61,171 nucleotides of DNA from a virus (taxonomy: Duplodnaviria; Caudoviricetes). Positions within the stretch are counted from its first letter, which is position 1, and each line of letters starts with the position of its first letter. Below are positions 1,886-53,153 of this stretch, piece after piece. The stretch is taken from the IMG/VR virus record IMGVR_UViG_3300032753_002656, positions 1-61,171 of that record. One strand, written 5' to 3'. The position numbers and the translations under genes were made by a program. Below the pieces are notes generated by a model that saw nothing but the letters and a program-made list of their open reading frames with translations, had not been told where the DNA came from and ran no database searches.

Positions 1886-4036
1886 TTAGAATTTAACTTT
1901 AATTGTTCGGTTAAAGGAACCAGTTAATTTGAGTATTACCTCATCTTTCACTGTGCTATTGAAGCCTAATCCTGATAATTGTTTGTCTGTAGGCTTGATC
2001 TTGTTATTAGCCCCTAGTACTTCCAAAACTTTCCTGTGTGTTAATAGATCTGGTAAAAGATTTTCATTGTGAAATCCTCTCACATCCTGATTAGTCTTTG
2101 CATTTTCTAACATAAAGAAATAATGCTTATTCCCTGCAGGATTTTCTCCCCAATGATTAGGAGATAAACAAACCAAATTAACCTTTTGGAAGGTGTTTGT
2201 TTCCATACCCCATATTTCCCTTGAAGATTCGGTAGAAGGTAATTTATGATTGATTGAAAATACCCCATTCTTTAGAGTTATTTCCGCTACCTGTATATTT
2301 CCTGAAACCGGTTTGTTGTAAACATATGTGAAAGTTTGTCCATCAAATTCTACCTCTGCAGTAAAGCCTTTTGAGCCACGAGAAGCAAATTGATGAACCC
2401 AAACCTTATAAATCCCATCCTTCATCTTTGATTTATCGCTCCATGCGATATTTTCAACGATATTCTTATTTCCATAATTATTTGGCTGTGTAATATCAAC
2501 ATCCAATTGACCAGACATAGGAGATCTTCCGTTGCCTGAATCCTTACGGAATCTGCGCTCTCCATAATAGATATGTTCACCCTTCTGATTTTGTGGTTCT
2601 TGTGCATGTGCATCTAGATCCGAATTATCGGAAGGATCTCCTTCGCCCCACATAATACTGAAGCGAAGTACTCCATCTACCTTACCCCCCTTTGCCTGAA
2701 CCGCCTCTTTTATCATACTTTTACCTGCAAGGTTACCGTTAAAGTCCCAGGAGTAATTATTAGGCCATTTAAAAATTGGCTTACTTTCTTTACTGTTAGT
2801 TGTCGTCATCGTAACCAAATTACCTTCGTGCTTGTTAGTAAACAAAGCCTCAATAGAGGAACAGGAAGGTAAAATATCCTTCATAAATTCCTCAATCGGA
2901 ATTTCTTCCACCCCCTCAAACTTAGCTACCTTTGTTGGTCCAGCAGAGGCCTTCACATTATCAAAGATTGTAACAGGCTTTATCTTGCTATTTGTAGAAA
3001 TATGTTTGATGTCGTTGACATTGATATCATCAATAGTAGCAAGCCTACGATCAAATGATTCCAGATATCCGTTATCAATAACAAATTTTTGAGCTGCCTC
3101 TATCTGACTTTTTGTAATTGGTGCACTGGCCTTCATATAATTTGCCGGATCCACACGTTTGTTAAAGTCCAGGCAAGCTTTATTAAGGTCTTCACCTCCT
3201 TCCAGCTCATAGCAAAATTCACCAACCAATGTATTACCAAATTTGGCAGTCCTTTCGTCTAAGCCATAACTTGTTTCCCAGAGCCAATTATTTTTATTAG
3301 TTTTTAACTTATCATATTTAGATTTGTGACCAATCATATTTTCAATGGCATGCAAATGTGCATTCCCATTTAAAAGGCTGCCCTGGTTAATTAGATCCTT
3401 CGCCAAATTTAGAGTCTCTAATGAGACTTCTTCCATTGTCCTTTTGAATACATCGTATTTGGTACGATAGTCACCCATTATAGTTTCTACCGATTTGTCC
3501 GACTTATCTACAAATTTGGCAGGAAGGTCAACATGGATGTGATTGAATGCTCGTATTTCATCGGGTTTAACCACGCCATATTTTTCTGCCTCTTCCAGAG
3601 TGTATTGTTTATGGTTTATTTCAATACCCAGGCGGTATGTTGGTTGATTAGGCTTAATCCGTTCGTAAGGAAGTGAATTAAGTTCCTCGTGTGTTTCGAA
3701 GAATACATTTTCAATTTGCCTGGTTTTCAAAACACCATGTAGTGCATCTGCAACAACCTTATAGGGACCTTTAATGTTTAGATCCCCGAACATAGAAAGT
3801 AATTCTCCGTTCTCATCAATCGCTACAATATTCCCATATCGTTTGATGAAATTGTTACAGTTGTTACAGTTGTGCATGGTACTATCTGGACTTCGAAAGA
3901 TCGGATTAGAACCATCAGGAAATGCCATCAAATATAACTGATAGATTTCCCTTCCTGATATATTAGACCTGAATAATTTCCCGGTTGAACACATTTTTTG
4001 AAATTGTTCCTTCAGGTTAATAATTAATTCTTCCAT
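1886..4036 (-). CDS. Large conserved jumbo-phage protein of unknown function
   Basis: 716-aa ORF with HNCNNC motif and LRFSIMW..DLDAHAQEP..LDVD..VENI (YfaP-like) block; has its own promoter upstream. Confidence 0.75.
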   Translation of the reverse strand: MEELIINLKEQFQKMCSTGKLFRSNISGREIYQLYLMAFPDGSNPIFRSPDSTMHNCNNCNNFIKRYGNIVAIDENGELLSMFGDLNIKGPYKVVADALHGVLKTRQIENVFFETHEELNSLPYERIKPNQPTYRLGIEINHKQYTLEEAEKYGVVKPDEIRAFNHIHVDLPAKFVDKSDKSVETIMGDYRTKYDVFKRTMEEVSLETLNLAKDLINQGSLLNGNAHLHAIENMIGHKSKYDKLKTNKNNWLWETSYGLDERTAKFGNTLVGEFCYELEGGEDLNKACLDFNKRVDPANYMKASAPITKSQIEAAQKFVIDNGYLESFDRRLATIDDINVNDIKHISTNSKIKPVTIFDNVKASAGPTKVAKFEGVEEIPIEEFMKDILPSCSSIEALFTNKHEGNLVTMTTTNSKESKPIFKWPNNYSWDFNGNLAGKSMIKEAVQAKGGKVDGVLRFSIMWGEGDPSDNSDLDAHAQEPQNQKGEHIYYGERRFRKDSGNGRSPMSGQLDVDITQPNNYGNKNIVENIAWSDKSKMKDGIYKVWVHQFASRGSKGFTAEVEFDGQTFTYVYNKPVSGNIQVAEITLKNGVFSINHKLPSTESSREIWGMETNTFQKVNLVCLSPNHWGENPAGNKHYFFMLENAKTNQDVRGFHNENLLPDLLTHRKVLEVLGANNKIKPTDKQLSGLGFNSTVKDEVILKLTGSFNRTIKVKF

Positions 4037-4129: not shown

Positions 4130-4348
4130 TTACTTAATACGTTCGAATATGAAATGAGGAATAGCATATATTCCATCTGATGATTTAAGTATTTCCATCT
4201 TTACAAAACATTCCCCATCTGGATAAACTTCTCCTTTTAATATAGAATAGCGTTCTGTAAAATTTGGGATTAGTATTTTACTAGAATCCACTCTATAAGA
4301 ACCATAAATTGCCCCATGAAAGTAATATCCATCTAAAAGTTTGTCCAT
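4130..4348 (-). CDS. FERIK-tail family small protein
   Basis: 72 aa; GYYFHGAIY near N-terminus; ends YAIPHFIFERIK*. Confidence 0.8.
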   Translation of the reverse strand: MDKLLDGYYFHGAIYGSYRVDSSKILIPNFTERYSILKGEVYPDGECFVKMEILKSSDGIYAIPHFIFERIK

Positions 4349-4354
4349 AAATAT

Positions 4355-4600
4355 TTATTTTATTCTCTCAAAAGGGAAAACAAGTTTCGCTAATCTAGAC
4401 CAAACCCCATCTTCGTTAAATCGAATATCAAGTTCACTACATTCGAAAATTGTAAAATCCACAAAAGTTTCCTCTAGTGGTTTGTCTATGTCAGAATTTT
4501 CTAGAGGATAGGATTTACTGTTATCCAAAAAAGGTAATATTATCCAGGGGTTTCTGTATATTCCATAAACTATACCATTCCGATAATAACCTCTTTCCAT
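4355..4600 (-). CDS. FERIK-tail family small protein
   Basis: 81 aa; GYYRNGIVY; ends LVFPFERIK*. Confidence 0.8.
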   Translation of the reverse strand: MERGYYRNGIVYGIYRNPWIILPFLDNSKSYPLENSDIDKPLEETFVDFTIFECSELDIRFNEDGVWSRLAKLVFPFERIK

Positions 4601-4608
4601 TATTTAAT

Positions 4609-4869
4609 TTATTTTATTCTTCCAAATGGTACATGGGGATCTGCAAATTCACGAAATATACCTTCATCATTTTGTAGTAGTGGACCAGGAACAAGGTCAA
4701 AGTATATCTCACCCTCAAAATCATCAGACAAGGGATTAGGTGTAATCATTTTAAATGCTATCTTAGATGCAAGATTAAAAATTATAACTGTTCCCCTAGT
4801 TTGCTCTTCTTCCCAAACTTCCCCATTTTTATAAAATCCCTTCCTTATTTTTATTTGATTCTTCTCCAT
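4609..4869 (-). CDS. FERIK-tail family small protein
   Basis: 86 aa; GFYKNGEVW; ends PHVPFGRIK*. Confidence 0.8.
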   Translation of the reverse strand: MEKNQIKIRKGFYKNGEVWEEEQTRGTVIIFNLASKIAFKMITPNPLSDDFEGEIYFDLVPGPLLQNDEGIFREFADPHVPFGRIK

Positions 4870-5054
4870 GGAAAATTAATTTCCGCTTTTAGTGATTTTC
4901 TTCCTGTTTCAGTTTCAGTAGTTACTAAAAGATAGCTCACACGACCTACCCAATCGGGGCCTGGGGTGGGACCCTCTACACTAATAGCACTACCATGATT
5001 TGGAATAATCTGGTTATTCCAAAGTAAGCCGTATCCTATCTTATTATCTTCCAT
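4851..5054 (-). CDS. FERIK-tail family small protein
   Basis: 67 aa; GLLWNNQII; ends INFPWRRIK*. Confidence 0.75.
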   Translation of the reverse strand: MEDNKIGYGLLWNNQIIPNHGSAISVEGPTPGPDWVGRVSYLLVTTETETGRKSLKAEINFPWRRIK

Positions 5055-5067
5055 GTAATTAATACAT

Positions 5068-5286
5068 CTAGAACTTTACGTCTTTTACACCCTCACAATT
5101 ATCACCACGGGCAACTATGTTTTCATCTAGTACCCTCTTGTCTAATAGAGTCCTAAATGAGGAATGTTTCGCACATTCTATTCCTGCTGAGCTAGCAACA
5201 ACATATCTGCAACACTCATGTCCTTGTCCGGGTTTGCAGACATTATAAAAATGCTCATCGGGTATTGGATTAGTTAAATTTTCCAT
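5068..5286 (-). CDS. Small Cys-rich protein interrupting the array (no FERIK tail)
   Basis: 72 aa; VCKPGQGHECCRY..ECAK..RGDNCEG. Confidence 0.7.
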   Translation of the reverse strand: MENLTNPIPDEHFYNVCKPGQGHECCRYVVASSAGIECAKHSSFRTLLDKRVLDENIVARGDNCEGVKDVKF

Positions 5287-5292
5287 ATTTGT

Positions 5293-5538
5293 TTATTTAA
5301 TTCTTTCAAAGCTAATCAATGGGATTGCATATTTACTTATTTTACCAGTAATCATATTCTCGCGGTCCATAAAATATTTTGTCGTTAGTTCGAATTTTTG
5401 TCCAGATTGTTTTAGACACTCTAACATATTTTCAATATCTTTATGTAAGGGAAAAGTAATAATTGCTTCATTCTTGGTTCTTACCATACCAAAATCAAAT
5501 CCTCCTATAACAATTTTGGTTTGATATCTATATTCCAT
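5293..5538 (-). CDS. FERIK-tail family small protein
   Basis: 81 aa; ends YAIPLISFERIK*. Confidence 0.8.
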   Translation of the reverse strand: MEYRYQTKIVIGGFDFGMVRTKNEAIITFPLHKDIENMLECLKQSGQKFELTTKYFMDRENMITGKISKYAIPLISFERIK

Positions 5539-5777
5539 TATTTAATTCGTTTAAATGGTACTAATGGTATTAATATTCTTTTTATAATATTCATTGGATT
5601 CCCTGTTGTAAGGGATTTCCCAATAAATTCAAGTTCGGTACGGGTTTCAAATAAAAAGCTTCTGTCTGAATCTATATTAAATCCATCTGCTATTCGGTAC
5701 ATGTAAACGTAATCATGTCTTCCATCCTGGCAAACGGGTATTAATTGGCCATTAAGAATTCTCGCTCTCTGTATCAC
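5538..5777 (-). CDS. FERIK-tail family small protein
   Basis: 79 aa; ARILNGQLI; ends IPLVPFKRIK*; TAATG coupling to the next gene. Confidence 0.8.
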   Translation of the reverse strand: MIQRARILNGQLIPVCQDGRHDYVYMYRIADGFNIDSDRSFLFETRTELEFIGKSLTTGNPMNIIKRILIPLVPFKRIK

Positions 5778-6025
5778 TTAATCCTTTCAAATGTTAATAA
5801 TGGTATGGCAGTGCAAGAATCTCCGCCTTCTTCATAATAGGTTTCACACAATTCAAATAGTTGGCCTTCTGTTGGTATTGTTTCTGGATCTATTCCTACA
5901 TCCAATGTATAAAATGAACGGATCTCTCCAAGTTCATTATAAACAAGACCTTGTCCATATTTACATATAGTTCTTGAAATAATTATATATTTTCCATTAA
6001 CCCACTTTATTTCTGCAAATTTCAT
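5774..6025 (-). CDS. FERIK-tail family small protein
   Basis: 83 aa; ends AIPLLTFERIK*; ATGA overlap. Confidence 0.8.
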   Translation of the reverse strand: MKFAEIKWVNGKYIIISRTICKYGQGLVYNELGEIRSFYTLDVGIDPETIPTEGQLFELCETYYEEGGDSCTAIPLLTFERIK

Positions 6026-6318
6026 TTTATCCTTTCAAAGGTTAATAGTGGTTCTACTGTTGTTCCAAATCCCGCTAATACCCAACCATTATCAAGTAGC
6101 TCTGAATTTTCATGGGTTATGAAAGAAAAAGATATTCCCTCTGGTACATCCATATTAGGTAATATTTTCCAAGGTACTGGAGATAAATTTAATTTATTTG
6201 TTATATTTTCCTGTCCGAATGGAGTTATTAAATGAATTGTGCCATGAAGAACTATTCCTTGGTAAACTTTTAATTTACCTGTTGAAAATTCATAATCCCG
6301 TGAAAAATCTATATTCAT
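6022..6318 (-). CDS. FERIK-tail family small protein
   Basis: 98 aa; GIVLHGTIHL..VPEG; ends VEPLLTFERIK*. Confidence 0.8.
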   Translation of the reverse strand: MNIDFSRDYEFSTGKLKVYQGIVLHGTIHLITPFGQENITNKLNLSPVPWKILPNMDVPEGISFSFITHENSELLDNGWVLAGFGTTVEPLLTFERIK

Positions 6319-6623
6319 TTTATTCGTTCAAATTCTAAAATAGGATCAATAAATTTTCTAGTTACCAGCTTAAAATATTCTTTTTCCATTATCCCTGCTC
6401 TTTCTACGCACTCTTTATACACAATTCTAAAAATAAAGGGAATATCATTAAGAATAGGATATTCTTGAAATCCTAAAAGCCCCTCCATACCACAGCATTC
6501 TTCTATATTCCTTGTTATCTGTCCCATACTATTTAATAGCTCCCCTTGTTTATTGGTCAGATAAACAATATCATTTATTAAAATACCATAAAATAGTGTT
6601 GTCTCCTGAAACTCTCCCATCAT
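6315..6623 (-). CDS. FERIK-tail family small protein
   Basis: 102 aa; GILINDIVYL; ends IDPILEFERIK*. Confidence 0.8.
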   Translation of the reverse strand: MMGEFQETTLFYGILINDIVYLTNKQGELLNSMGQITRNIEECCGMEGLLGFQEYPILNDIPFIFRIVYKECVERAGIMEKEYFKLVTRKFIDPILEFERIK

Positions 6624-6873
6624 TTGATTCTTTCAAATATTAGTAATGGCTCAATTATAGAATATATTTCATGCGTCATTAGACCATTTAAATTTAATTT
6701 GGCTCTTTGCTGATAGCTAAAAGTAAAATGAAATAATACACCAGGTGTAATAAAAGCTCCATATTTTATTTCTAAATATTCTCCAAGAGTTAAAATGGTC
6801 TATTACTAAGATCTAAGCAATTAATAATATTACCCTCTAATATTCCCCTGATTATTAATTCTTCTATTATCAT
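6620..6873 (-). pseudogene. FERIK-tail family member broken by a 1-nt frameshift (or sequencing error)
   Basis: ATG 6873: MIIEELIIRGILEGNIINCLDLSNRPF* then, one base out of frame, TLGEYLEIKYG...IIEPLLIFERIK* (TGA 6620-6622). Span is 254 nt; ATGA overlaps at both ends. Confidence 0.8.
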
Positions 6874-7139
6874 TTTATTCTACTAAATTTAGGGGGAAGT
6901 ATATTCAGCTCAAGTATGTAAAGTCTTTGAAATTCATCAGGATCTCCTCCACTCCATATTTCTTGATATTCTATATAACCATCTATTTCTCTTGCCCATT
7001 CTGGAACACCAAAACCAGTTGGAATTTCTTCCATATTGCCATTAATTTTACTAATTAATATTTGGTAATGTGTCTTATTCTTTATACGCCCGCATTTTAT
7101 TTTGCTCTCTCCCATACAAATATTGGTTCTGCTACCCAA
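6870..7139 (-). CDS. FERIK-tail family small protein (start may be the internal MGESK)
   Basis: Ends ILPPKFSRIK*. Confidence 0.75.
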   Translation of the reverse strand: MGSRTNICMGESKIKCGRIKNKTHYQILISKINGNMEEIPTGFGVPEWAREIDGYIEYQEIWSGGDPDEFQRLYILELNILPPKFSRIK

Positions 7140-7306
7140 TGTATAATAGGTTTATCTTTTACCTCTATTAAAATATCACCCTCAAATAATACAATACCAT
7201 CCGGAATTTTTTGAGCCATTATGAATAGACTTTTTGATAAAAATCCATCCTCACCAGAAATATATAATTCACCATTTATTAAGATACCTGCTGTTCTGAC
7301 TTTCAT
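7097..7306 (-). CDS. FERIK-tail family small protein
   Basis: 69 aa; GILINGELYI..IPDG; ends AEPIFVWERAK*. Confidence 0.75.
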   Translation of the reverse strand: MKVRTAGILINGELYISGEDGFLSKSLFIMAQKIPDGIVLFEGDILIEVKDKPIIHWVAEPIFVWERAK

Positions 7307-7324
7307 CCTATCCTGGATTATTAT

Positions 7325-7618
7325 TTATTTGATCCTTTCCCATTTCATTTGTATCTCTGCTTCGTATATGATTTTAGGATATCCAAAATCATCATGGATT
7401 TTTCCAAACTTTGAGATCTGATACATTTTACCTATAAATTCATAACTTCCATCTGGTATATCGGGATTAATAATATATCCTGTTTCCTTATAATGGAGAT
7501 CTCCATCAAAATCGATAAATTTATATAATTTTCCGTTTGCAACTAACCCATATTCAAGTTCACCAAACATTTTATCTCTATTAAGAAACAGGGAATCATA
7601 TCTAATGTCTTTCATCAT
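7325..7618 (-). CDS. FERIK-tail family small protein
   Basis: 97 aa; GLVANGKLY..IPDG; ends AEIQMKWERIK*. Confidence 0.8.
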   Translation of the reverse strand: MMKDIRYDSLFLNRDKMFGELEYGLVANGKLYKFIDFDGDLHYKETGYIINPDIPDGSYEFIGKMYQISKFGKIHDDFGYPKIIYEAEIQMKWERIK

Positions 7619-7633
7619 ACACTAAAATTAGTA

Positions 7634-7933
7634 TTATTTTATACGTTCAAAATTAACAATAGGAATAGCATAAAATAAAGGACCCCCATAGCCTTTACCA
7701 TACTCGTCAAATTTTTGTCTCCTCGTTAATTCGAATTCATACTCTTCCTCAATTTTTAATCCTAATTTACTTAAACCCTTTGCTAGGGGGTAATATTTAA
7801 TGATATCACTATAACCGTTTCCTGTTTGTATTCGACAAACTCCTTTCCTAGTCCAGGAATATGTTCCCTGCAATATCCTATAAGAGATCCTATTATCCTT
7901 GATCCTTAATATCTCCCCCTCTTTCTGTGACAT
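7634..7933 (-). CDS. FERIK-tail family small protein
   Basis: 99 aa; ends YGGPLFYAIPIVNFERIK*. Confidence 0.8.
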   Translation of the reverse strand: MSQKEGEILRIKDNRISYRILQGTYSWTRKGVCRIQTGNGYSDIIKYYPLAKGLSKLGLKIEEEYEFELTRRQKFDEYGKGYGGPLFYAIPIVNFERIK

Positions 7934-8244
7934 TATTTAATCCGTTCGAAATTAACAATAGGTATACAATACCGAATTTGTCCTCAGTAACTTTTTACAC
8001 CGTTTTTATCAATCAATCTTTTAGTAATAGTTGTAAATTCAAATAAAATAATAGTCGAGGTTAATCCTTCTACACCTTCATAAATATTATATCTAAACCC
8101 CGGAACCAATCCTGCTTCTGTCTCAAACAATAAAGCAACTTTTTTATCTTCTTCCTGTTTGAATGATCCATATTGAATCTCCGTATGGATCGTTTTATAT
8201 ACATCCGAAGTATCAGTCTTTTCCAGGGTGTAGGTTTTTGGCAT
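7933..8244 (-). pseudogene. FERIK-tail family member with an in-frame TGA 16 codons before the natural stop
   Basis: Track ORF 7984-8244 ends KNGVKSY-TGA, but the frame continues GQIRYCIPIVNFERIK-TAA (7933-7935), with TAATG coupling to the next gene. Confidence 0.8.
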
Positions 8245-8448: not shown

Positions 8449-8679
8449 TTATAAAATTTTATCCCGGAGAAGTTTTAAATTTTGTGCTAGCAATGTTCGT
8501 TCTACCTTACGAACATTATTTAATATTAGATTGGGATCTGTATTTGGTGGATATGCGTTTGCTTCATTATCCATTTTTAATTCATTGGATTTATTAAGTC
8601 CAATAATTAATTGGTCGATTTCTTTTACTATATCCTTTAATTCCATATTAATCAATTGTTGCGTTAATTCCGCGGTCAA
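8449..8679 (-). CDS. Hypothetical protein (start probably the internal MELKD)
   Basis: ORF fills the gap downstream of clpS. Confidence 0.5.
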   Translation of the reverse strand: MTAELTQQLINMELKDIVKEIDQLIIGLNKSNELKMDNEANAYPPNTDPNLILNNVRKVERTLLAQNLKLLRDKIL

Positions 8680-8941
8680 TAAATCCTTCTGCTAGGGGTT
8701 GAAGTGTTTCAAAATCCCCGCTCTTGACCCCACATTTACCCTTAAAGTGTATTATAAGAGTACACTGCTCTGCTTGCTCTTTGCTATGTTTACAAATTTC
8801 CATAAGAGATTGTATAACATGATCAAACGAGTTAACTTCGTCATTCCAAAGAATGAGGTTATGATTTTCTTTATTATTAATATCTGTAACCTCTAAAACT
8901 TGTTCTTCTATGTCGGGAGATCCCCAATTAATTATACCCAT
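8648..8941 (-). CDS. clpS: ATP-dependent Clp protease adaptor ClpS
   Basis: LILWNDEVNSFDHVIQSLMEICKHSKEQAEQCTLIIHFKGKCGVKSG matches Bacteroidota-type ClpS. Confidence 0.88.
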   Translation of the reverse strand: MGIINWGSPDIEEQVLEVTDINNKENHNLILWNDEVNSFDHVIQSLMEICKHSKEQAEQCTLIIHFKGKCGVKSGDFETLQPLAEGFIDRGINATID

Positions 8942-17444: not shown

Positions 17445-18956
17445 TTATTTATATAAACCAATCGACATACGATGGAGGGATTCGTTCCTGCCTAAAATTT
17501 CCATTGTTGTTAATAGATCTGGCCCAGGTATTCCCTTCCCTACCAATTTACGTAATTCTGGCATAATAAATTTCTCTTTCTCGCCATGCACAAGCGCTAC
17601 CTTATCAAGTATCTCTTTTATTTTATCCTTTTTCCAATCTAAATGATGTACGCTAAGTCCCAATTTAATAATATCCTGAAGCATAACCATTTCTGTAGTC
17701 CAAACTATAGGATTATTACCTTCTTCCTTTGGAGGTAATAATCCACGATTAAATATTTCTACTACCTTATTAAGATCTGAAAATAATACACTTCTGGCTT
17801 TGGCCAGATTAATAATTTGTTCTTGCTTTTCTTTGTTATCATTATAGAAAGGATCAATGTATACCTTATCCAAAAGAACTGAATTAGGAAGGATATTACT
17901 AATATATTGGCTATTGAAATATTTAGCTTTCTCAATGTCAAATTTAGCACCTCCAAGATGAACGTCTGATAGCTCAAACATTTCTATCATGTCTTCCATA
18001 GACATCATCTCATTATGTATTTTTGGAGTCCATCCTAAAAGGACTAAAAAGTTCAGTAGTGCGGAGGGATCATAGCCAAGCTCCATAAATCCATTACTTC
18101 CTACTACGGATCCGTCATCATTTATCATAACAGCATCCATTGGAAATACTGGTACTCCTAATTTGATAGCACTTCTTTTAGAAAGCTTACCCTTCCCATT
18201 AGGATTAAGTATTAGTGGAAGATGTGCAAATTCTGGTGTATCCCAGCCCATAGCTTCATAAATAAGATAATGGAGACCAAGGGATGAAAGCCATTCTTCT
18301 CCCCGAATAACATGAGTTGTCCCCATATCATGGTCATCCGCACAATTGGCAAGATGATAAGTTGGTATACCATCAGATTTAACAAGGACTTTATCATCCA
18401 TGTCATTTGTGTTATATTTAATTGGTCCCCTAATAATATCATTAACTATGAACTCTCGATTTTCTGGGGTTTTAAAACGAATGACATAAGGTCCATTTAG
18501 CATCTCCCTTACTTCATTTACATTCATAGTTAATGAGTTTCTCATTGTCATTCGAAACTTGGAATTATAAATGAAATTGGTATGTCCCTTTTCCCCCATA
18601 TTACTTAATCTCGCATTCTCAATATATTCGGGAGTATCGAAGGCATAGTAAGCATGGCCTGTTAGTAACAATTTGTTAATATGTTCAGTATAATCCCTTT
18701 CTGATTGACGATATTTTTTACAACCATCTATCCAAGGGGCAGCATCTGGTATAAGTCCAAACCATTCCAAAGAATTTTTGATATACTCCTCTGCATCAGA
18801 AACAAATCTTTTAGTATCAGTATCCTCAATACGAACATAAAAGGTTCCTTCGTGCTTTTTTGCGAAAAGGTAATTATATAATGCAGTCCTAATTCCTCCA
18901 ATATGGAGGAATCCGGTCGGACTTGGCGCGAAGCGGGTAACAACTTTTTTATTCAT
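17445..18956 (-). CDS. gltX: Glutamyl-tRNA synthetase
   Basis: RFAPSPTGFLHIGG, RIEDTD, PTYHLA..DDHDMGTTHVIRGEEW, KLSKR. Confidence 0.96.
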   Translation of the reverse strand: MNKKVVTRFAPSPTGFLHIGGIRTALYNYLFAKKHEGTFYVRIEDTDTKRFVSDAEEYIKNSLEWFGLIPDAAPWIDGCKKYRQSERDYTEHINKLLLTGHAYYAFDTPEYIENARLSNMGEKGHTNFIYNSKFRMTMRNSLTMNVNEVREMLNGPYVIRFKTPENREFIVNDIIRGPIKYNTNDMDDKVLVKSDGIPTYHLANCADDHDMGTTHVIRGEEWLSSLGLHYLIYEAMGWDTPEFAHLPLILNPNGKGKLSKRSAIKLGVPVFPMDAVMINDDGSVVGSNGFMELGYDPSALLNFLVLLGWTPKIHNEMMSMEDMIEMFELSDVHLGGAKFDIEKAKYFNSQYISNILPNSVLLDKVYIDPFYNDNKEKQEQIINLAKARSVLFSDLNKVVEIFNRGLLPPKEEGNNPIVWTTEMVMLQDIIKLGLSVHHLDWKKDKIKEILDKVALVHGEKEKFIMPELRKLVGKGIPGPDLLTTMEILGRNESLHRMSIGLYK

Positions 18957-23491: not shown

Positions 23492-24667
23492 TTAAACTTT
23501 TTCTATCTCATACATTCCCAATAACTTCATTCCATGTATTAGATCATCTAATAAAGGCTGGAATAATATTTGATTTTCTGGATTATCCTTAATATGATTA
23601 GTAATATATAATTGATTAATTAGTTTTGCATGCTCGACTAACTCATCAAATAACAAATTTGGAGCTATTAATGTTCTAGCCTTTAATAGCTTAAACTCTA
23701 AAACATTACTATTGAATTCTTCAATCCTCTGAGGTTTAAGTCCTGCAGATTTGATCCTTGCGAGAGTATAGCTAAGATACAAGCCAAAAGAAGTTTTGAC
23801 GTTATCAATTTGATTCATTTTAATATCCTTCATGGAAGATAGATCATATTTGAGTATATGACCACATAAAACATTCCATGTTAGATCAAAATCATTATTA
23901 AACTTCTCTTGTACTTGTTTTAGAATCTCTGCCATTAGAATAACATTTCCCTCTGACGATGACATTTTCTTCCCATCAACTGTTACCAAACCAAGCCCAA
24001 TATGTTTAATATCAGGAAACATATCCTTTAATAAAGAAAAATGCCCATTTTGCTCTAATCCCGTAACGTATAAGGTTGGAGAATTTAATTTAGTTGCTAA
24101 AGCTACATCCTGGTAAAAATATGTACTAACACCTGTTGATTTTAAACCTACTATTTTTTGATCCCCAATCTCAAATATTTTTGTCCCTTCATAGTCTCCT
24201 GTACCCTCTTTGAGAGAAGAAGAATCTAATGTTTGGGCAGAGGCGAAATAAATGTCGTCTATATAATAGTCATACTGCATACAATAATATTTATATGCCT
24301 TAAGAGCTTCATCCTTAGTAACAGAACCCTCCAAAGTGTCCCCTAAGATAGCAATAGTTTTTTCTGTAATTCCTAAACATTGTAATGTTTTGGCAATGAT
24401 CAAATTAGATAGATGCCCTAAATGGAGTTCCTTATTTAGGTTAGGACTAAAAAAATCTCCATATTTATAAATTTTAGGTTCCTCAAAAAGATCTTTAATA
24501 TTAACACCTAATGGTAGTGTGATATTATTGTACGGACCAGTAGATTGAATTTTTAAGCCCCAATATTTTATCCATTCTAGAATTTCTTCTGTTGGATCTC
24601 CATAAACAGAAAAACCAAAAGTTAAATTTTTTGGAACAAGCTTTATTTTATTTATGTTGAGCCTCAT
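23492..24667 (-). CDS. argS: Arginyl-tRNA synthetase, compact form
   Basis: FSPNLNKELHLGHL, KSTG..TYFYQDVA, YVTGLEQNGHF, KKMSSSEGN, YLSYTLARIKS, GMKLLGM..EKV; start moved to ATG 24667 because the track start overlaps the promoter. Confidence 0.9.
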   Translation of the reverse strand: MRLNINKIKLVPKNLTFGFSVYGDPTEEILEWIKYWGLKIQSTGPYNNITLPLGVNIKDLFEEPKIYKYGDFFSPNLNKELHLGHLSNLIIAKTLQCLGITEKTIAILGDTLEGSVTKDEALKAYKYYCMQYDYYIDDIYFASAQTLDSSSLKEGTGDYEGTKIFEIGDQKIVGLKSTGVSTYFYQDVALATKLNSPTLYVTGLEQNGHFSLLKDMFPDIKHIGLGLVTVDGKKMSSSEGNVILMAEILKQVQEKFNNDFDLTWNVLCGHILKYDLSSMKDIKMNQIDNVKTSFGLYLSYTLARIKSAGLKPQRIEEFNSNVLEFKLLKARTLIAPNLLFDELVEHAKLINQLYITNHIKDNPENQILFQPLLDDLIHGMKLLGMYEIEKV

Positions 24668-24688
24668 TATTATAACTTTATTACATAG

Positions 24689-24767
24689 CAAATATAATAA
24701 AAAGTTTCTGAATAGAAAAATCTATTCAGACGAATTATAATGAAATAGTGTTAAAATTATGTTAAGG
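24689..24767 (-). promoter_or_regulatory. argS promoter with overlapping hairpin and TTAACA-N5-TTAACA box
   Basis: TATATTTG 24689-24696; inverted repeat tctgaataga-aaaa-tctattcaga 24707-24730; sense CCTTAACATAATTTTAACAC. Confidence 0.7.
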
Positions 24768-26567: not shown

Positions 26568-27044
26568 CTATAAATTTTTATTAAACAAATTATTTATGGT
26601 TTCCCATTTTGAATATGTTGTATCAGTCTCACCCTCATATCGATTATATAGGGTCTGGAAATCCTTTGACATGTCCTCTATCCAATCCCATTCTCCTTTA
26701 TCCACTAAATCAAGAAAATAATTTAGTTGTTCGTGAGTTCCATATAAATGGTAAATTCTTGATAAATCTTCGTGGCTATATCTAAATCCATCAATTTTAA
26801 ATATGCCAAACTGACAATTTTCTTGATCCTCTGGCCAAATTGCATAGGTAAAATTACCTTTCCTAAACCAGATCATACCAAAGCCATGATTTCCAATTCC
26901 CTGATATCCACGTTTTATTAACTTATTTTTGATAATTTCTACTTCCTTCTTTAACCAATCAATTAACATTTCCTCGTGTATTTCATCGGGAACGCTAAAC
27001 ATATCACGAGTAAAGTCAGAAAAAACTATTTCATTATTTTCCAT
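26568..27044 (-). CDS. Hypothetical protein
   Basis: 158 aa in operon. Confidence 0.6.
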   Translation of the reverse strand: MENNEIVFSDFTRDMFSVPDEIHEEMLIDWLKKEVEIIKNKLIKRGYQGIGNHGFGMIWFRKGNFTYAIWPEDQENCQFGIFKIDGFRYSHEDLSRIYHLYGTHEQLNYFLDLVDKGEWDWIEDMSKDFQTLYNRYEGETDTTYSKWETINNLFNKNL

Positions 27045-29826
27045 CTTTAGTTGTATTAAATAATCTAACAGGAGATTGAGGTTCCTTTAGAATATCACGA
27101 GCTCTCCTAAACGTTAAGGTTATACGATAATTAATCAAAGTTGTTTCTCCTACTTTATTACCACCTTCATCCCAAACAGGAACAATAATTGATTTAGTCT
27201 TAGTGTTTTGTGTATTTTCCGATACTCGATGGTTAAAAGTAAATCTGTTTACACCATTGATACCAAATGCGTATATTCCGCCATTTTTAATTACTAAGCT
27301 ATTAATCTTTTCTGGATTTTTTTCAAAAACAGAATAAGTATTTTCATTTAAATCATATTTAGTTTCATCTGAAAAATCTGTATGGTACATTAAACTTCCT
27401 TCGGCACCTAAATTTATAACAACAACCGGATAATTTTTTGCGGTAATACTTTCTGTTATATCTCTATGCTGGTGTATAAAAGATCCAGGTTCGTAAATAT
27501 TAGCAAGAACCGAATCATAATCTTTCAAATCAATTCCTAATTTTTCTTGTATGAAATTCATGATTGGTTGAAGCTTCTTTATACTCGGTAAAGGCTTGTT
27601 ATTTTGGTCCGTTACATAATATCCATACCCATCATATTTGGCCGGTGCCTTTATAACAACTCTTCCTGGCCTTTGTTGTAATCCTAATTTTCTCTGATAA
27701 CTTTTTTCTGACTCATTTGGAATATTCTTAGCCCATCTTAGGCCGAAGGAAAACATTCTATTAGCAGTATAAGCTCGGTTCTCAACATATGCTTGATTAA
27801 GTATTTGTGGCTGTAAGAGGTCTATAAAATTATTAGCTTCCTCTAAAGAGAGACCAGTATCTGCTATATTTTCAACACCAGGATAAGGTGAATAAATTTT
27901 ATCAGAACCTTTGGGCTCTTCTTGTTTTGTTGATTGGGATAAAGCATATGTACACTTAGAAGACCTAGACATAGCTACATACATCTCCGAATTTAGGTTT
28001 TCTATTTTATCGGGGCTTTCCTTTAAACGATTTCTCCAATAATGATTTCTCCCTTCGATATTATCCAGATCAACAATAGTATTTTCATAAGTAGCTCCTT
28101 GGGATTTATAAGCAGTTATAGCATAACCATAATCTATGGATTTTTCTTTAAACAAAGATGCTTTCCTTTTTGTTATTTCAACAAATTCTAAAATTTGTTC
28201 GTAAGTTAGCCTCTTATCTGCTAATCTCATCTTAACATTTCTTTCAATCTCGCTTTCACTAATTAGTTTATTATTATAACGATAAATGTTTTCATTTGTT
28301 TGTAAAGTAGCACTAAGTAATTTCAATGCGCTTTCTATTGGAAGTATTTTTTCTCGCCAAAATTCTTTTCTTTTCTTATACTCTAGCTTCTTTTGTTCTT
28401 TTTTAAGAGCCTCTACTCTATCATAGAGGAGATTGAATAATTCACCAGTCCTATCAAATTCTTTGACGTGATCCGGATCCTTCATATCAAAGATAAACAT
28501 TATCATCTTTACTGGATCAAATATACTATCACTCTCTGTAATTTCTAAGGTATAGGGAATAAGTGATAAGTCCTTCTTCCCCAATTCAGATAGCATACGA
28601 GCAATTTGCTGTTTACCACTATTAAGTGTACCTAAAGTAAAATCATCCAAGCCAACCTTTTGTCCATTTTTAAGGGTAGTATTAACCATTTCTAATAATC
28701 CAATAGGTTCTGTCTTAATAGAATTTACAATATACTCCTGGGAATTATAAAATATTTCTACACTTTGGGAATAACCCATAAGTGTATCTCCGACGCTATA
28801 TGAATATTCACCAACATCAAGACCAAGAAGGCCTCTTACCATTTTGTTGTATTGGGAAACCTTTTCATTAGACTTTGCCACTATTTTAACAAATGCCCTA
28901 TTTTCTTGGTATTTTGGATCTGTATACAATTTAGTAATTATATCACCGATTGTATTTGAGTAAATGATCCCCTCCCCATCGGGACCTACTCTAGTTAGAT
29001 ATGACAGGGGTGAGTGTACACTGCGTATATTGTTGCGTAGCTCTGTTAATTCCTCTATTAAAGGATTATCTTTGCCCGTGCGCATTACCTCCCTTAAACC
29101 GACAGAATGCGTTACATTATGTGAACTAAAAAGGGGAGATAATTTTTGGGTTCCTGGATTTCTTAATTGTGCTGGATCCCCCATAACAATAACAGGGATC
29201 ATACGGGAGTAGTATTTTACTTTCTCTATTTCTCCTGGATCCGATATCATCGATACTTCATCAATTACCCAAAGGGAAACAACAGGAACCCCGCTTTTAA
29301 CTAATTTACTATACCCAGCAGTAGCTTCTATATCTTTAGTATATTCCATACCACCATGAGTATTAAGAACTAATTGTGTTTGGAAAGCTGCTTGTGTAGT
29401 AAATGTTCTAGCTTTGAAAAATTCTCTGGCATTAGGACCAGAGATATAGTCTACTAGTTTTTGATTAAATTTATTCCGAACCTGCATAGTTCGGATTGAT
29501 TTAAATAGTTGCTTTCTTGCTTGGTGTGAGGGGGCAGAAATGGCAAATCCCTTACCTATTTTCTTACTATCTACTAGATATTGTAGAAAAAATTTAATAA
29601 CAGAGGTTTTTCCAACTCCAGCAAATCCCTTGACAAGAAATATGTTATCCTCTCCAGTTCTATTTTTTCTGGTATCCCACCAATGATATAACTCTTCCAA
29701 TAACTTTTCCTGCTGAGAAGAAAGACCTTTTGGAAATGGTATATCAATAATACATCCATCTGGAAATTTATATTGATGTTTTTCCCGAATTATTTCTACT
29801 ATTTTATCTTTTGATGGCTCTACCAT
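27034..29826 (-). CDS. Dda/RecD-like SF1B helicase fused to an AlkB-like 2OG-Fe(II) dioxygenase
   Basis: GFAGVGKT, APSHQA, IDEVSMI, GDPAQL, EVMRT, YAITAYKSQGATY, YVAMSR; C-terminal LANIY..IHQHRD..NLG..HRV..RITLTFR. Confidence 0.85.
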   Translation of the reverse strand: MVEPSKDKIVEIIREKHQYKFPDGCIIDIPFPKGLSSQQEKLLEELYHWWDTRKNRTGEDNIFLVKGFAGVGKTSVIKFFLQYLVDSKKIGKGFAISAPSHQARKQLFKSIRTMQVRNKFNQKLVDYISGPNAREFFKARTFTTQAAFQTQLVLNTHGGMEYTKDIEATAGYSKLVKSGVPVVSLWVIDEVSMISDPGEIEKVKYYSRMIPVIVMGDPAQLRNPGTQKLSPLFSSHNVTHSVGLREVMRTGKDNPLIEELTELRNNIRSVHSPLSYLTRVGPDGEGIIYSNTIGDIITKLYTDPKYQENRAFVKIVAKSNEKVSQYNKMVRGLLGLDVGEYSYSVGDTLMGYSQSVEIFYNSQEYIVNSIKTEPIGLLEMVNTTLKNGQKVGLDDFTLGTLNSGKQQIARMLSELGKKDLSLIPYTLEITESDSIFDPVKMIMFIFDMKDPDHVKEFDRTGELFNLLYDRVEALKKEQKKLEYKKRKEFWREKILPIESALKLLSATLQTNENIYRYNNKLISESEIERNVKMRLADKRLTYEQILEFVEITKRKASLFKEKSIDYGYAITAYKSQGATYENTIVDLDNIEGRNHYWRNRLKESPDKIENLNSEMYVAMSRSSKCTYALSQSTKQEEPKGSDKIYSPYPGVENIADTGLSLEEANNFIDLLQPQILNQAYVENRAYTANRMFSFGLRWAKNIPNESEKSYQRKLGLQQRPGRVVIKAPAKYDGYGYYVTDQNNKPLPSIKKLQPIMNFIQEKLGIDLKDYDSVLANIYEPGSFIHQHRDITESITAKNYPVVVINLGAEGSLMYHTDFSDETKYDLNENTYSVFEKNPEKINSLVIKNGGIYAFGINGVNRFTFNHRVSENTQNTKTKSIIVPVWDEGGNKVGETTLINYRITLTFRRARDILKEPQSPVRLFNTTKDGK

Positions 29827-30446
29827 AAATTTAATTGATCCTCTTTAGGTGGAACTAATAATTCACCAAGTCCATACATTAATTGGCTTGTTTCGTCGCC
29901 CTGAAAAGTAAAAGGGTTTTTATCTCCATCACAGAGTTTTTCTGTCCTCTTGATTAGAAATTCTCGGAGGAGAAGATTTTCCAAAAAATTAGTATAAACC
30001 TTATGAAGGCCTAATCCAGAATAAATGAGATCTAATTCAATGTTACCTTTACCATTAGTTCTAATTAATGGTGTTCCTATTATGCCAGGAGTTAAAATCC
30101 TTCTAACGTTATACTCATAATAATAACCAACATTGTATTCTATTAGGTATGAGATTTTTTTATTAAGTATTGGTGTTACTCCGATGAAAAGATCGCTAGT
30201 TTCTTTAATACCCGGATATGAAACCACAATTTTAGAGGTAATATTTTTCATACGAGAACCACTATAAACAAAATCCTCCATAACAAATGTAGGTATTGGT
30301 ACTTGGAATAAATCCATCGTTAAAATATCTAATCCACCATGTGTTTCTTTCAAAACATCATTGGTGTGTAGAAGTATAATCCTTGTTGCTATTTCTGGTT
30401 TCATTCGGTCCAGATCATTCATTTTAAATCTGGCCATAGTTATCAT
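29820..30446 (-). CDS. Hypothetical protein ending in a clamp-binding-like motif
   Basis: 208 aa; ends EDQLNLW*. Confidence 0.6.
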   Translation of the reverse strand: MITMARFKMNDLDRMKPEIATRIILLHTNDVLKETHGGLDILTMDLFQVPIPTFVMEDFVYSGSRMKNITSKIVVSYPGIKETSDLFIGVTPILNKKISYLIEYNVGYYYEYNVRRILTPGIIGTPLIRTNGKGNIELDLIYSGLGLHKVYTNFLENLLLREFLIKRTEKLCDGDKNPFTFQGDETSQLMYGLGELLVPPKEDQLNLW

Positions 30447-31864
30447 GGTATCTTTTCAAATAAGATTACTTTTTTCCTTTCTCTTAATGCTTTATCTATA
30501 ATCTCTGCTTTATTCGGGAACACTGGAACGTATAATCTTGAAACTGTCCAGATCAAATGATAGCAATCGCTTAATATTCTTTTTACTCTCTCCGGATCTG
30601 TTTCTGACCAAGGCTTATGATCGTTAATGTATTTATTTCCATAAGAAACTAATTCTGCTGTTCTTGCCAATGCTTCTTTTATTTGAAACTTATTCCAAAG
30701 ATCCGTTATATTTTTTTCCCCATCTACTAAAATTTTAAAAAAGTCTGGTGTTACAGAAGTAAAATATTCCCCTTCGCATTTTGTATCCATTAAATGTAAT
30801 ACCCTGGATATAAAATTACCCCATGAATTACAAATATCAGCATTAAATTTCAATCTTAGATCTTCCTCATTCCAGCTAGAGTCAGAGTAAGTGGATAATC
30901 CAGCCAAAGCGTAATATCTAACTGCATCCAGGCCAAATTTATTTAGTTGATCTATCGGGTCTATTACATTACCCTCTGTTTTGGACATTTTTTTACCATT
31001 ACTATCCACTATAGTTCCATGAACTAATAATTTATTTGTTTTCCTAAAATGTAATGCATCCAACATTCCCTGGAATATAATAGCCTGAAATCTGAGATTG
31101 TCTGGACCGCATATTTGGATGATATTAGTATCTTCGTGATTCCACAATTCGTTTGCTGCAATAACATAATTAAGTAATGCATCAAACCAAACGTATATGA
31201 CATGTTCAGGATCATCAGGTACTTCAACACCCCATGGGCATTTTGCTTTTAGTCGGGATATTGAAATATCTCCGGTCTCTTCGATCATATTGATCAATTC
31301 CCCCCTTTTATATTGAGGCTCTAGAAAAGATGGACTATTTTTAAGCCAAGTTAGAAGTTTTTCTTTGTGATCTCCAAGCCTAAAGAAATAATTTTCTTCT
31401 TCAACCTCATCTAAAGTAAGTGTATGATGATCCGGACATTTACCATCAACAAGTTCTTTATCCTGCTTAAATGATTCACACCCCACACAATATAGAGATT
31501 TGTAAGGCTTTTTATAAATTTCATTACGCCCCATAAAAACATGCCAAAATCCCTGGACAAATTCATGATGTTTTGGATCTGATGTTAAGTAGAAATTGTC
31601 ATACTTAATATCAAACTTACCACAAAAATCTTTCCATATAGGTTCTAGGGTCTTAATATACTCATGTGGTGTAATACCAAGCTCGTCTGCTTTTTGTTTT
31701 ATTTTTGTACCATGGCAATCTAATCCAGTATTAAAAAAAACTTCATTATTTTCCAGCCTAAAGTATCTGGTGATAGCGTCACCTAATACAAATTCGAACA
31801 TATGACCTATATGAGGTATAGAATTTGCATATGGTAAAGTAGTTGTTAAGAATATTTTTCCCAT
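30443..31864 (-). CDS. metG: Methionyl-tRNA synthetase (short form)
   Basis: TTLPYANSIPHIGH, YCVGCE..CPDH, ISR..WGVEVP..HVIYVWFDALLNY, KMSKT. Confidence 0.96.
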   Translation of the reverse strand: MGKIFLTTTLPYANSIPHIGHMFEFVLGDAITRYFRLENNEVFFNTGLDCHGTKIKQKADELGITPHEYIKTLEPIWKDFCGKFDIKYDNFYLTSDPKHHEFVQGFWHVFMGRNEIYKKPYKSLYCVGCESFKQDKELVDGKCPDHHTLTLDEVEEENYFFRLGDHKEKLLTWLKNSPSFLEPQYKRGELINMIEETGDISISRLKAKCPWGVEVPDDPEHVIYVWFDALLNYVIAANELWNHEDTNIIQICGPDNLRFQAIIFQGMLDALHFRKTNKLLVHGTIVDSNGKKMSKTEGNVIDPIDQLNKFGLDAVRYYALAGLSTYSDSSWNEEDLRLKFNADICNSWGNFISRVLHLMDTKCEGEYFTSVTPDFFKILVDGEKNITDLWNKFQIKEALARTAELVSYGNKYINDHKPWSETDPERVKRILSDCYHLIWTVSRLYVPVFPNKAEIIDKALRERKKVILFEKIP

Positions 31865-39361: not shown

Positions 39362-39528
39362 CCCCTTATTGGACCTGCAACCCTTCTTCCTGTAATTGAT
39401 TGACTCTCGAGAAAAGAAATCCTTTTCTCGAGAGTTTTAATATATTGTAAAAGTGCAACAAATCCTTCTTGAGAATGGTCAGGGTCCTCGATCATTCCTA
39501 ATATGTCTTTTTCTAATTGCTTATCCAT
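39358..39528 (-). CDS. Small hypothetical protein (56 aa, below the track cut-off)
   Basis: TAATG-coupled to the VWA gene: MDKQLEKDILGMIEDP...VAGPIRG*. Confidence 0.5.
   Translation of the reverse strand: MDKQLEKDILGMIEDPDHSQEGFVALLQYIKTLEKRISFLESQSITGRRVAGPIRG
39403..39434 (+). terminator. Hairpin, candidate terminator of the CHAP gene
   Basis: actctcgagaaaag-aaatc-cttttctcgagagt followed by T residues. Confidence 0.55.
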
Positions 39529-40919
39529 TATTGGAATTCTGTTTTTACAACACTATTAATAATATAACTAGTTTTCTTAACCATTTCTGGCCCTAAGGAG
39601 TTAACTATACAATTATAGTCATAAAGATGTCGGGTATCATGATATATTCCAACCCCTATAGTTACAAAACCATCTCTTCTACATTTTTCTACTATTCTTT
39701 TTAAGTTATCTACATCCCTTTTACTGCCATAAGAATTTCCACAAGGCTCTCCGTCAGAAAGAACTATAAAAATAATGTTATCCTCTGTGTATTCACGAAC
39801 CTTCTCATAAATAGCTTCAATAACAGGTCCATCATAATTTTCACTCTTAGCCCTCATTGTTTCAATAGAATCATTGAAATTGTCATGATATGGATCCTTA
39901 TAGACATAGATCACTGGATGGTATCCACCGCTATGGCCGTAAACACTTAACTTATTTTTAGGTAAAATTTCGCTGAAAGCCAAATACATAGTTTTCACAA
40001 CATCAATTGCACATTTCATTTTTCCTCCCATACTACCAGATTCATCAACAAGTATAACTACACTGAAAGGCTTTGTTGTTTGATTTGGTTCAACCTTATA
40101 ATAAATATTAAGGTTCCCTGCAATAACTTCTCCGACCTTCCGTTGGTCAAATTTACCAGCTCTTAATGAATTTAAACGGTCTATACTAGGATCGAAATTA
40201 ATATCTAATAATTGAACTAATGTTTTTGCATTCCTTTCTTGTTCTGCTGTAAATGGTTTTATTGAAGGGGATCCCTTAGGATATTGCCAGGTAGTATTTC
40301 TTTTTAATTCCCCACTAATATTAGGTGCTTGTGGCTTTTCTCTTTTTTTAGTTTCTCCTAAAGTACCAGATAGAATTTTTTCTATTCTCCTCGTTAATTG
40401 TTCAGCAGTCTCTTTTTTAGGTTTAGATTTTTTACTATCCTTATCATTTTTATCCTCTCCCTCTTTTGGATCAGAATCACCCTCCCCATCACTACTTGTT
40501 GATTCCTCCTCTGGAGGGGGAATCTTAACCATTATATCAGTAGTTAAAATTGTTTCGGTGTAATGTAGGAATAAGGATCTATATTCTTTTTCCTGTCTAA
40601 TCAAGGTTTCCAAAACTGCTCTCTGTGAATCCTTGTTACAAACAGCAAATTTATCATCGCTAAATCCCCAAAAGCCTTTTCTTGTAACAATTTTTGGATC
40701 TTGTGAAAGAGCTTCTATTAATCCATATTCCTTCGATTTAACAAGAAAGATATCTATAAGCTTAGAACCTGTGTAATAACTCAGGTCCTTATGCTTATGG
40801 ATATCATATTCTACATCCATCCCAGTATGAACGTCTGGATGGTCTATAATTAAACCCTTATATCCTCCATAGAAGGATGACTCCCATTTCGTGGAGCTAA
40901 AAATATTATCTTTCCTCAT
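39528..40919 (-). CDS. VWA-domain protein (CobT/NorD-like), copy 2
   Basis: MIDAS DESGSM..NYDG..LSDGEP; GKFDQRKV; acidic linker. Confidence 0.85.
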   Translation of the reverse strand: MRKDNIFSSTKWESSFYGGYKGLIIDHPDVHTGMDVEYDIHKHKDLSYYTGSKLIDIFLVKSKEYGLIEALSQDPKIVTRKGFWGFSDDKFAVCNKDSQRAVLETLIRQEKEYRSLFLHYTETILTTDIMVKIPPPEEESTSSDGEGDSDPKEGEDKNDKDSKKSKPKKETAEQLTRRIEKILSGTLGETKKREKPQAPNISGELKRNTTWQYPKGSPSIKPFTAEQERNAKTLVQLLDINFDPSIDRLNSLRAGKFDQRKVGEVIAGNLNIYYKVEPNQTTKPFSVVILVDESGSMGGKMKCAIDVVKTMYLAFSEILPKNKLSVYGHSGGYHPVIYVYKDPYHDNFNDSIETMRAKSENYDGPVIEAIYEKVREYTEDNIIFIVLSDGEPCGNSYGSKRDVDNLKRIVEKCRRDGFVTIGVGIYHDTRHLYDYNCIVNSLGPEMVKKTSYIINSVVKTEFQ

Positions 40920-40937
40920 CTTATTGGGTTTAATTAA

Positions 40938-42110: not shown

Positions 42111-42137
42111 AGATAAGTTTATTTAAATGTTAACTTT

Positions 42138-43808: not shown

Positions 43809-43811
43809 AAA

Positions 43812-52853: not shown

Positions 52854-53153
52854 TTACTTAATTCTTATAAAAATTGGATCCTCATTTAGCCTTTCAATTA
52901 ATAAGGATTTACTCCAATAAAATTTAGGAGAGGATCCAGCATCCCATAATTTTATAATCCAATTATCCCCTCCCCCTGAAGATCCAACTTTTATATAAAA
53001 TCCATTTTGACCTTGATAAAGATCTGTATCAGAATCTATACATTTATAGCCTTCATTAAAAAGTAAACTATAAAGTTCCTGAAATCTTGGATTACCTATA
53101 TTTGATATAGGGCATTTAAAGAAAGTTGAGTTATAGAATCTTGGCTCTCTCAT
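52854..53153 (-). CDS. Small protein with FxRIK tail
   Basis: 99 aa; ends EDPIFIRIK*. Confidence 0.7.
   Translation of the reverse strand: MREPRFYNSTFFKCPISNIGNPRFQELYSLLFNEGYKCIDSDTDLYQGQNGFYIKVGSSGGGDNWIIKLWDAGSSPKFYWSKSLLIERLNEDPIFIRIK

Follow-up and report, generated by a model that had tools for sequence, protein, structure and literature searches.

A tandem array of divergent small phage genes sharing an exactly terminal FERIK-type peptide

The 61-kb window of viral DNA analysed here (61,171 nucleotides, the whole stretch) is part of a large phage, and the same DNA is present in lake-water metagenomes; no RNA run stood among the sequencing runs listed as carrying it, which is no measure of expression. 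Its minus strand carries, from position 8244 down to 4130, 16 back-to-back reading frames, 15 of which end with the tail [FW]-x-R-[IA]-K and then a stop codon. The array with its common tail is real, and the statistics leave no ambiguity: in its strict DNA form the tail is found nine times on the minus strand, and not once on the plus strand or in a backwards control, while a two-tail DNA pattern gives 2 matches against 0.00 expected from 100 shuffles. The encoded proteins, 67 to 102 amino acids long, belong to a family that is undescribed in every resource searched (Pfam, PHROGs, PDB, protein databases and the literature). Judging from sequence searches, the range of the family is limited to huge freshwater phages, of which it occupies at least two lineages, the second known from an array of eight genes on another contig (L003). 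It is established that the tail is under strong purifying selection within an array of paralogues subject to birth and death. The tail could be a docking peptide that plugs many different bodies into one partner, a tentative reading that is weighed below against its rivals.

The genes are given here from the upstream end of the array, all on the minus strand, the lower coordinate of each being the stop-inclusive gene end that bears the tail. The first is a FERIK-ending copy interrupted by a TGA codon (7933-8244), followed by members of 99 (7634-7933, FERIK), 97 (7325-7618, WERIK) and 69 amino acids (7097-7306, WERAK), the last of which was used for structure modelling. The FSRIK member at 6870-7115 has 81 amino acids counted from its ATG and 89 if translation starts at an upstream TTG at 7139. 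It precedes a frameshifted copy ending in FERIK (6620-6873) and three FERIK members of 102 (6315-6623), 98 (6022-6318) and 83 amino acids (5774-6025). Then come a member of 79 amino acids with a GTG start (5538-5777, FKRIK) and one of 81 amino acids (5293-5538, FERIK). The array is interrupted mid-way by a gene for a Cys-rich polypeptide of 72 amino acids with seven Cys (5068-5286), confirmed as a non-member, which has no Pfam match and no counterpart in the second array. Beyond it lie the members of 67 (4851-5054, WRRIK), 86 (4609-4869, FGRIK) and 81 amino acids (4355-4600, FERIK) and the last array gene, which encodes 72 amino acids (4130-4348, FERIK). Thirteen of the 15 tail-bearing copies are intact and two are broken, one by a frameshift and one by the TGA; the original prediction of fifteen consecutive genes, made from the letters of the window, is therefore right for tail-bearing frames and not for intact genes. 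The junctions between array genes range from a 19-base overlap to an 18-base spacer, with several ATGA, GTGA or TAATG overlaps, and at several of them the K codon together with TGA forms the ATG of the next gene. This arrangement fits translational coupling, as had been proposed.

All 15 tails foreseen in this region were recovered on the minus strand and their earlier tally by sequence is exact, with FERIK found nine times and FGRIK, FKRIK, FSRIK, WRRIK, WERAK and WERIK once each. The stop codon placed directly after the tail is TAA in ten window genes and TGA in five. Arginine is encoded in the window tails by AGA (7), AGG (3), CGT (2), CGA (2) and CGG (1), and in the 23 tails of both arrays by AGA (10), AGG (5), CGA (4), CGT (2), CGC (1) and CGG (1). 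Altogether the 23 tails use six Arg codons, three Ile codons and all three stops, and their codons for F, E, R, I and K scatter like those of the long open reading frames (ORFs) of the window. Since the tail codons vary synonymously in line with the codon usage of the window and the stops vary as well, what selection acts on is clearly the tail peptide and its place at the end of the chain, and not a repeat in the DNA. The same conclusion had been drawn earlier from the variety of Arg codons and of TAA and TGA stops, both of which are as described.

The position of the tail at the chain end is exact. All 23 tails in the two arrays finish with R-I/A-K and then stop, and among them no homologue extends past the motif or lacks it. 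The core [FW]-x-R-[IA]-K stands as first described, but the motif is longer: A(-11), [IE](-10), P(-9), hydrophobic residues at -8 and -7, [FW](-5), E(-4), R(-3), I(-2) and K(-1). Its information content peaks at R(-3), F/W(-5) and K(-1), each present in 23/23 tails, with I(-2) in 22/23, E(-4) in 19/23, P(-9) in 16/23 and A(-11) in 12/23; a Pro stands at -6 in 7/23 tails. The strong positions -11, -9, -5, -3 and -1 would point to the same side if the peptide were extended; -4 and -2, however, are strong too, so that the alternation is limited to positions upstream of -5 and the last five residues are all strong. The final gene of each array retains the tail though no coupled gene comes after it, and the tail is therefore not the start signal of a following gene.

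The two broken copies show that the family is still turning over. In the copy at 6620-6873 the ATG overlaps the previous stop and opens a piece of 27 codons (6790-6873) whose product carries the family N-terminal motif before a stop is reached, and the other 59 codons, which end in FERIK, sit in a different frame (6620-6799). In run X4, from another lake sample, one contig (depth 2.9) carries an extra 7 bases behind 6795, an insertion whose length and position join both pieces in one frame. As this insertion restores a single frame, the defect of the window is a strain-specific frameshift. The copy at 7933-8244 consists of 86 codons, the in-frame TGA at 7984-7986 and 16 further codons up to its FERIK end. 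The TGA is present in contigs of the three samples that cover it (X1, X2, X4), with no listed difference, and TGA is a normal stop in the window, where it ends 5 of the 15 tails and 4 of 48 long ORFs. Translated across the TGA, this copy is recognised by the family profile (E 7e-5), and the ATG of the next gene overlaps its distal TAA and not the TGA. Its tail differs from that of its neighbour at four synonymous sites and keeps 11 of 12 residues, and was therefore long translated after the duplication. The TGA is either a recent nonsense mutation or a site of readthrough; a search for an orthologue of this copy found none.

The bodies that precede the tails are very divergent. Pairwise BLAST gives marginal matches between them (best E 1.5e-4) and their identity averages 27% over aligned columns, values of about 20-27% being quoted for the bodies. 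They are detectable as one family by profile comparison even after removal of the last 12 residues on both the query and the target side. Of 57 ORFs ranked with a profile built from the window bodies, the top 7 included six members of the second array (hypergeometric P = 5e-6), and the reverse test, with second-array bodies against the window, placed five members among the top 7 of 408 (hypergeometric P = 4e-7). Because the bodies form one family without their tails, one domain would carry one tag. Common to the bodies is an N-terminal hairpin motif, G-[YFIL]-x-x-x-G-x-[IVL]-[YF]. The central [IV]P[DE]G element of the original prediction is better written [DE]-G-x-[IV]. Inserts of variable length separate the N-terminal hairpin, the central element and the tail. 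The pI of the family proteins spreads from 4.5 to 10.3, a spread that would be expected of surfaces that have diversified. In 23 sequences, namely 22 tail-bearing proteins and the truncated copy 7987-8244, neither a membrane segment nor a signal peptide was found, the maximum 19-residue hydropathy being 1.14.

Database searches agree with the earlier statement that this is not a described family. Ten of the 15 window members were scanned at E <= 1 in Pfam, where seven gave no match and three gave matches far below the cut-off (12-15 bits against 27), and the same ten gave 0 matches in PHROGs v4. A sequence profile search of the PDB had a best E of 4.1, two protein databases added no known family, and a literature search recovered no description of such a family, the gene tables in the supplements of huge-phage papers being outside its reach. 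Among 5.8 billion clustered proteins the profile matched only the genes of the window itself and, on a 401,578-base contig, three close orthologues, one of which ends in FSRIK where the window has FERIK. An exhaustive profile search of 1.84 billion representatives returned the same set plus one repeat protein. The latter, the Calx-beta protein P0009 (2003 amino acids), was the best match of that search and is spurious: behind its summed E of 7.7e-23 stand 11 near-identical repeats that score 8.6-9.6 bits apiece in alignments running over the repeat borders. In a search of this size a short divergent protein becomes significant at about 45 bits, so that distant members would be missed by it, as the second array indeed was.

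AlphaFold2 was run twice, on family alignments of 16 and 24 rows, and both resulting models are all-beta, with pLDDT 58.5 and 60.5. These predictions are consistent with the beta-rich bodies supposed earlier and are too poor for naming a fold. In the first model (the 69-residue member 7097-7306) residues 52-69 are unstructured, and in the second positions -11 to -7 lie in a strand with the last six residues in coil. Foldseek found nothing at E <= 0.001 in the BFVD with the second model or in the PDB with the first, and the suggested resemblance to AF2212-like swapped-hairpin barrels found no backing in these searches with models of such quality. The top Foldseek rows for one model are beta-hairpin repeats of the choline-binding/CROP type, at a non-significant E of 0.9-4. 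The N-terminal G-x-x-x-N-G-x-x-Y hairpin of the family does resemble one such repeat; it is however a single hairpin and not a solenoid, and the ten members scanned have no Pfam match of this kind at E <= 1. The ESM Atlas added nothing of use, with feature scores of 0.75-0.76 to unnamed viral clusters and models of its own at pLDDT 0.41. A complex prediction with two copies of the 69-residue member, run without controls, scored 0.00 and speaks neither for nor against self-association.

Within the window the family profile finds nothing beyond the array. The two-tail DNA pattern, applied to Joint Genome Institute (JGI) metagenomes, led to the second, divergent array, which occupies positions 3771-5626 of contig L003 and consists of eight consecutive genes for proteins of 69-94 amino acids that all end in FERIK, with GIY-YIG endonuclease genes on its flanks. 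Four of its proteins are present in a protein database, and three of these are also encoded by a 473,921-base contig. The comparison with the window covered 7.7 kb of the 46.6-kb contig L003, and in this stretch only the GIY-YIG endonucleases are common to both. Directly upstream of the second array, at L003 2963-3784 on the plus strand, are adjacent genes for proteins of 133 and 138 amino acids, without Pfam match, whose N-terminal stretches look alike by eye only. Scans of IMG/VR with the DNA pattern (three gap ranges and one relaxed form) and with proteins yielded 0 loci, which is weak evidence on distribution, neither known array being in that collection. The strict DNA pattern found 0 loci in 185,579 species genomes. 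LR756500.1, a related 462-kb phage with a homologue (56% identity) of the 716-residue protein encoded next to the window array, has 0 tail patterns and 0 profile matches, the corresponding counts for the window being 9 and 15.

Several other loci were set aside. The relaxed pattern hits 11 loci in the species genomes, none of them a gene array, eight being without a tail ORF and three being tiny ORFs or repeats. In Ignavibacteria, the contigs L014 (2212-3084) and L013 (3417-3494, minus strand) of metagenome-assembled genomes have a repeated short element encoding ...N-H-G-F-A-R-I-K in tiny ORFs, probably a repeat of the DNA that has nothing to do with the phage family. The pattern locus L004 is a short DNA duplication. 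A ParM-like/actin-like (ALP_N) protein of 311 amino acids, encoded at 390-1325 of L005 (minus strand) and also on L002, ends in Y-F-E-R-I-K. This ending is probably due to chance, since one such end is expected in billions of proteins and the second pattern match beside it is not gene-terminal.

The interpretation that we favour is that the array is a library of paralogous soluble binders, all joined to one putative receptor by a free C-terminal peptide. It is the best supported of the readings considered, though unproven, and we would grant it a little less than an even chance. In this proposal a lineage-restricted multigene family of small, soluble, probably all-beta proteins would have expanded by tandem duplication, its bodies diverging almost beyond recognition and its last ~11 residues, above all [FW]-E-R-I-K-COOH, being held by purifying selection. 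The tail would be a short linear docking peptide that needs a free carboxyl end and plugs every member into one common putative receptor of the phage or of its host. The variable bodies would supply different specificities and make the array a library of adaptors or effectors; the anti-defence role suggested earlier is a guess. We infer docking from the conservation of position, from the invariant charged residues and from low-confidence models with an unstructured end; docking in trans, the logic of a library and everything that concerns the receptor are inferences as well. Invariant charged and aromatic residues at a fixed chain end fit a recognition motif better than a core strand, and both low-confidence models leave the last 6-18 residues without secondary structure.

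Conserved terminal peptides that address a hub are found in the C-terminal tip of SSB and the C-terminal peptide of FtsZ, which have an I-P-x-F-like core and many partners. There, however, one protein bears the peptide and many partners read it, whereas here many proteins bear the tail, and the spacing and end residues differ. Tightly packed arrays of fast-diverging small genes with birth-and-death turnover are also formed by polymorphic immunity or anti-defence genes in phages and conflict systems (PMC3482391). Their proteins are unrelated, or related over their whole length, and have no common terminal pentapeptide. Several points speak against docking. The models are too poor to call the tail free, and the pairing of an N-terminal hairpin with a C-terminal strand, both conserved, would equally be expected of a small beta fold whose two ends close it. 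The family is a small sample, being found in two phage lineages only, and no co-occurring receptor gene emerged from the 7.7 kb around the second array; the common docking partner remains hypothetical.

The main rival to the docking tag is that the tail is an ordinary structural last beta strand, which closes the fold with the N-terminal hairpin or swaps into homo- or hetero-oligomers with no outside partner. The paired conservation of N- and C-terminal elements suggests such a closing or swapped strand, the conserved trio of N-terminal hairpin, central [DE]-G-x-[IV] strand and tail, with variable inserts between, looking like a fold whose ends meet. The strand at -11 to -7 in the second model points the same way, as does the tight gene coupling, which would yield subunits in equal amounts. 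It would be unusual, however, for a structural strand to keep an invariant R and K and an exact end in 23/23 proteins at about 20-27% body identity, and the FERIK residues have no secondary structure in either model, both of low confidence. We regard this explanation as unlikely on balance, if clearly the strongest competitor.

A special case of docking would have the tail tether the proteins, in the manner of SspB, to an AAA+ unfoldase of the host, for example ClpX, through its N-domain, so that they act as adaptors delivering bound host proteins to proteolysis or as anti-adaptors blocking host adaptors. The ClpX-binding (XB) peptide of SspB is its extreme C-terminus, RGGRPALRVVK-COOH, as given in passages of PMC3983244 and PMC8808172, and SspB joins a binding body to this short peptide that tethers it to a shared machine. 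The tails of SspB and of the array have in common an upstream Pro, a hydrophobic residue at -5, a nearby Arg, a branched hydrophobic residue at -2 and a terminal Lys. The phage also encodes a ClpS homologue about 400 bases upstream of the array, and thus does touch Clp proteolysis. Furthermore, the SspB peptide fused to a binder suffices for targeted degradation in E. coli, according to passages of PMC12373786. The likeness has its limits: the Arg of the array tail, at -3, is shifted in register by one from that of SspB, at -4; the bodies have no homology, the ten members scanned with Pfam giving no SspB (PF04386) match; SspB is a single gene and not a hypervariable array; and ClpS partners ClpA, not ClpX. 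The same passages of PMC12373786 describe the XB peptide as active wherever it is placed in the chain, whereas the array tail is always terminal, and an SspB-like model would thus leave the strict chain end unexplained. We take the analogy, the nearest to a working system with support in print and closer than those with hub peptides or cargo-loading tags, as an improbable but concrete lead and not as a claim of membership. Equally doubtful, and drawn from the same analogy, is the idea of a phage-encoded library for targeted degradation, in which each body would bind a different host protein, for example a defence factor, and the tail would link both to an AAA+ protease of the host by way of its N-domain.

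Still less probable is that the tail is a packaging or targeting signal by which the small proteins would enter the capsid, or some other compartment of the phage, and so be delivered to the next host. One tag borne by many unrelated-looking cargoes is the logic of such signals: the cargo-loading peptides of encapsulins and the capsid-targeting sequence of T4 are short terminal tags that each send diverse proteins to one shell. Those tags differ from FERIK in sequence, that of T4 is N-terminal, and their cargoes are unrelated enzymes, whereas the array encodes paralogues. The window does have Pfam matches to a T4-type terminase and a Gp23-like capsid protein; the array, however, lies among aminoacyl-tRNA synthetase, ClpS and nuclease genes, away from structural genes.

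Conservation at the level of nucleotides or translation, as a ribosome-binding or re-initiation signal, or cleavage of the tail as a signalling pentapeptide, is very improbable: the tight coupling with its shared K codon and TGA, and the precedent of Phr and arbitrium peptides, which are the C-terminal 5-6 residues of small precursors, speak for it, but the randomised synonymous sites, with CGN Arg codons breaking the purine run in 5/15 window tails, and the tails kept by the terminal genes of both arrays largely exclude nucleotide-level explanations, while a terminal peptide is present without the hydrophobic N-terminal segment or export signal of RRNPP/arbitrium precursors in the 23 sequences (maximum 1.14), and a mere carrier would have no need of conserved body motifs.

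Small genes without annotation number in the hundreds in huge phages, and here 15 + 8 of them, in two lineages, are united by one exactly terminal pentapeptide. As this peptide is under peptide-level selection, it offers an experimental handle on dark genes, and its receptor would give the whole block a role. Should the receptor prove to be a protease or another machine of the host, the array would amount to a naturally occurring adaptor library, informative on phage-host conflict and a source of parts for bacterial protein targeting. A library for targeted degradation, if true, would be nature's parallel to engineered bacterial degraders; an arms race would have diversified it, and it would work beside the phage's own ClpS. 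Even with a tail that is a structural strand, the family would show cleanly how far bodies can diverge while one terminal element stays fixed.

A remnant second site of the tail family may exist in the window at 52854-53180. A gene on the minus strand (52854-53153) encodes a possible distant member of 99 amino acids that ends in P-I-F-I-R-I-K before its stop and is not detected by the family profile. Directly upstream, also on the minus strand, an 8-codon mini-ORF (53154-53180) encodes M-P-P-F-N-R-I-K and a stop, essentially the tail alone, and lies between the 99-residue gene and an RNA ligase gene (53198-53863). Two adjacent tail-like ends, set against about 0.2 such ends expected by chance in the whole window (a rough estimate from residue frequencies), suggest a remnant.

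The ClpS homologue upstream of the array (8648-8941, minus strand) belongs to the same gene block and is given as context only. At the other end a 93-base gap separates the last array gene from the gene of the 716-residue protein (1886-4036, minus strand), which has no Pfam match. This large protein without assigned function is widespread among phages: homologues with 36-56% identity, mostly annotated as hypothetical, are found in 525 phage records from many hosts, including Salmonella, Klebsiella, Bacillus and Cellulophaga. Further Pfam matches in the window are to two MoxR/VWA pairs, RNA ligase, PNKP, homing endonucleases and tRNA synthetase domains of Glu-, Met-, Asp/Lys- and Arg-type. At least four aminoacyl-tRNA synthetase-like genes are on the minus strand, at 1-972 (class II Asp/Lys/Asn), 17445-18956 (GluRS), 23492-24691 (a short ArgRS-like match) and 30443-31864 (MetRS). 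The MoxR-type AAA+/VWA pairs stand in tandem at 39528-44819 (minus strand), one formed by 40938-42110 and 39528-40919 and the other by 43812-44819 and 42138-43808, and an additional VWA protein is encoded at 48065-49171. A SET-domain protein of 130 amino acids (57260-57652, minus strand; Pfam E 1.3e-9) is encoded next to a nucleoside 2-deoxyribosyltransferase-like gene (56809-57249). The ORF at 27034-29826 codes for a 930-residue protein in which an SF1 helicase is fused to a 2OG-Fe(II) oxygenase domain.

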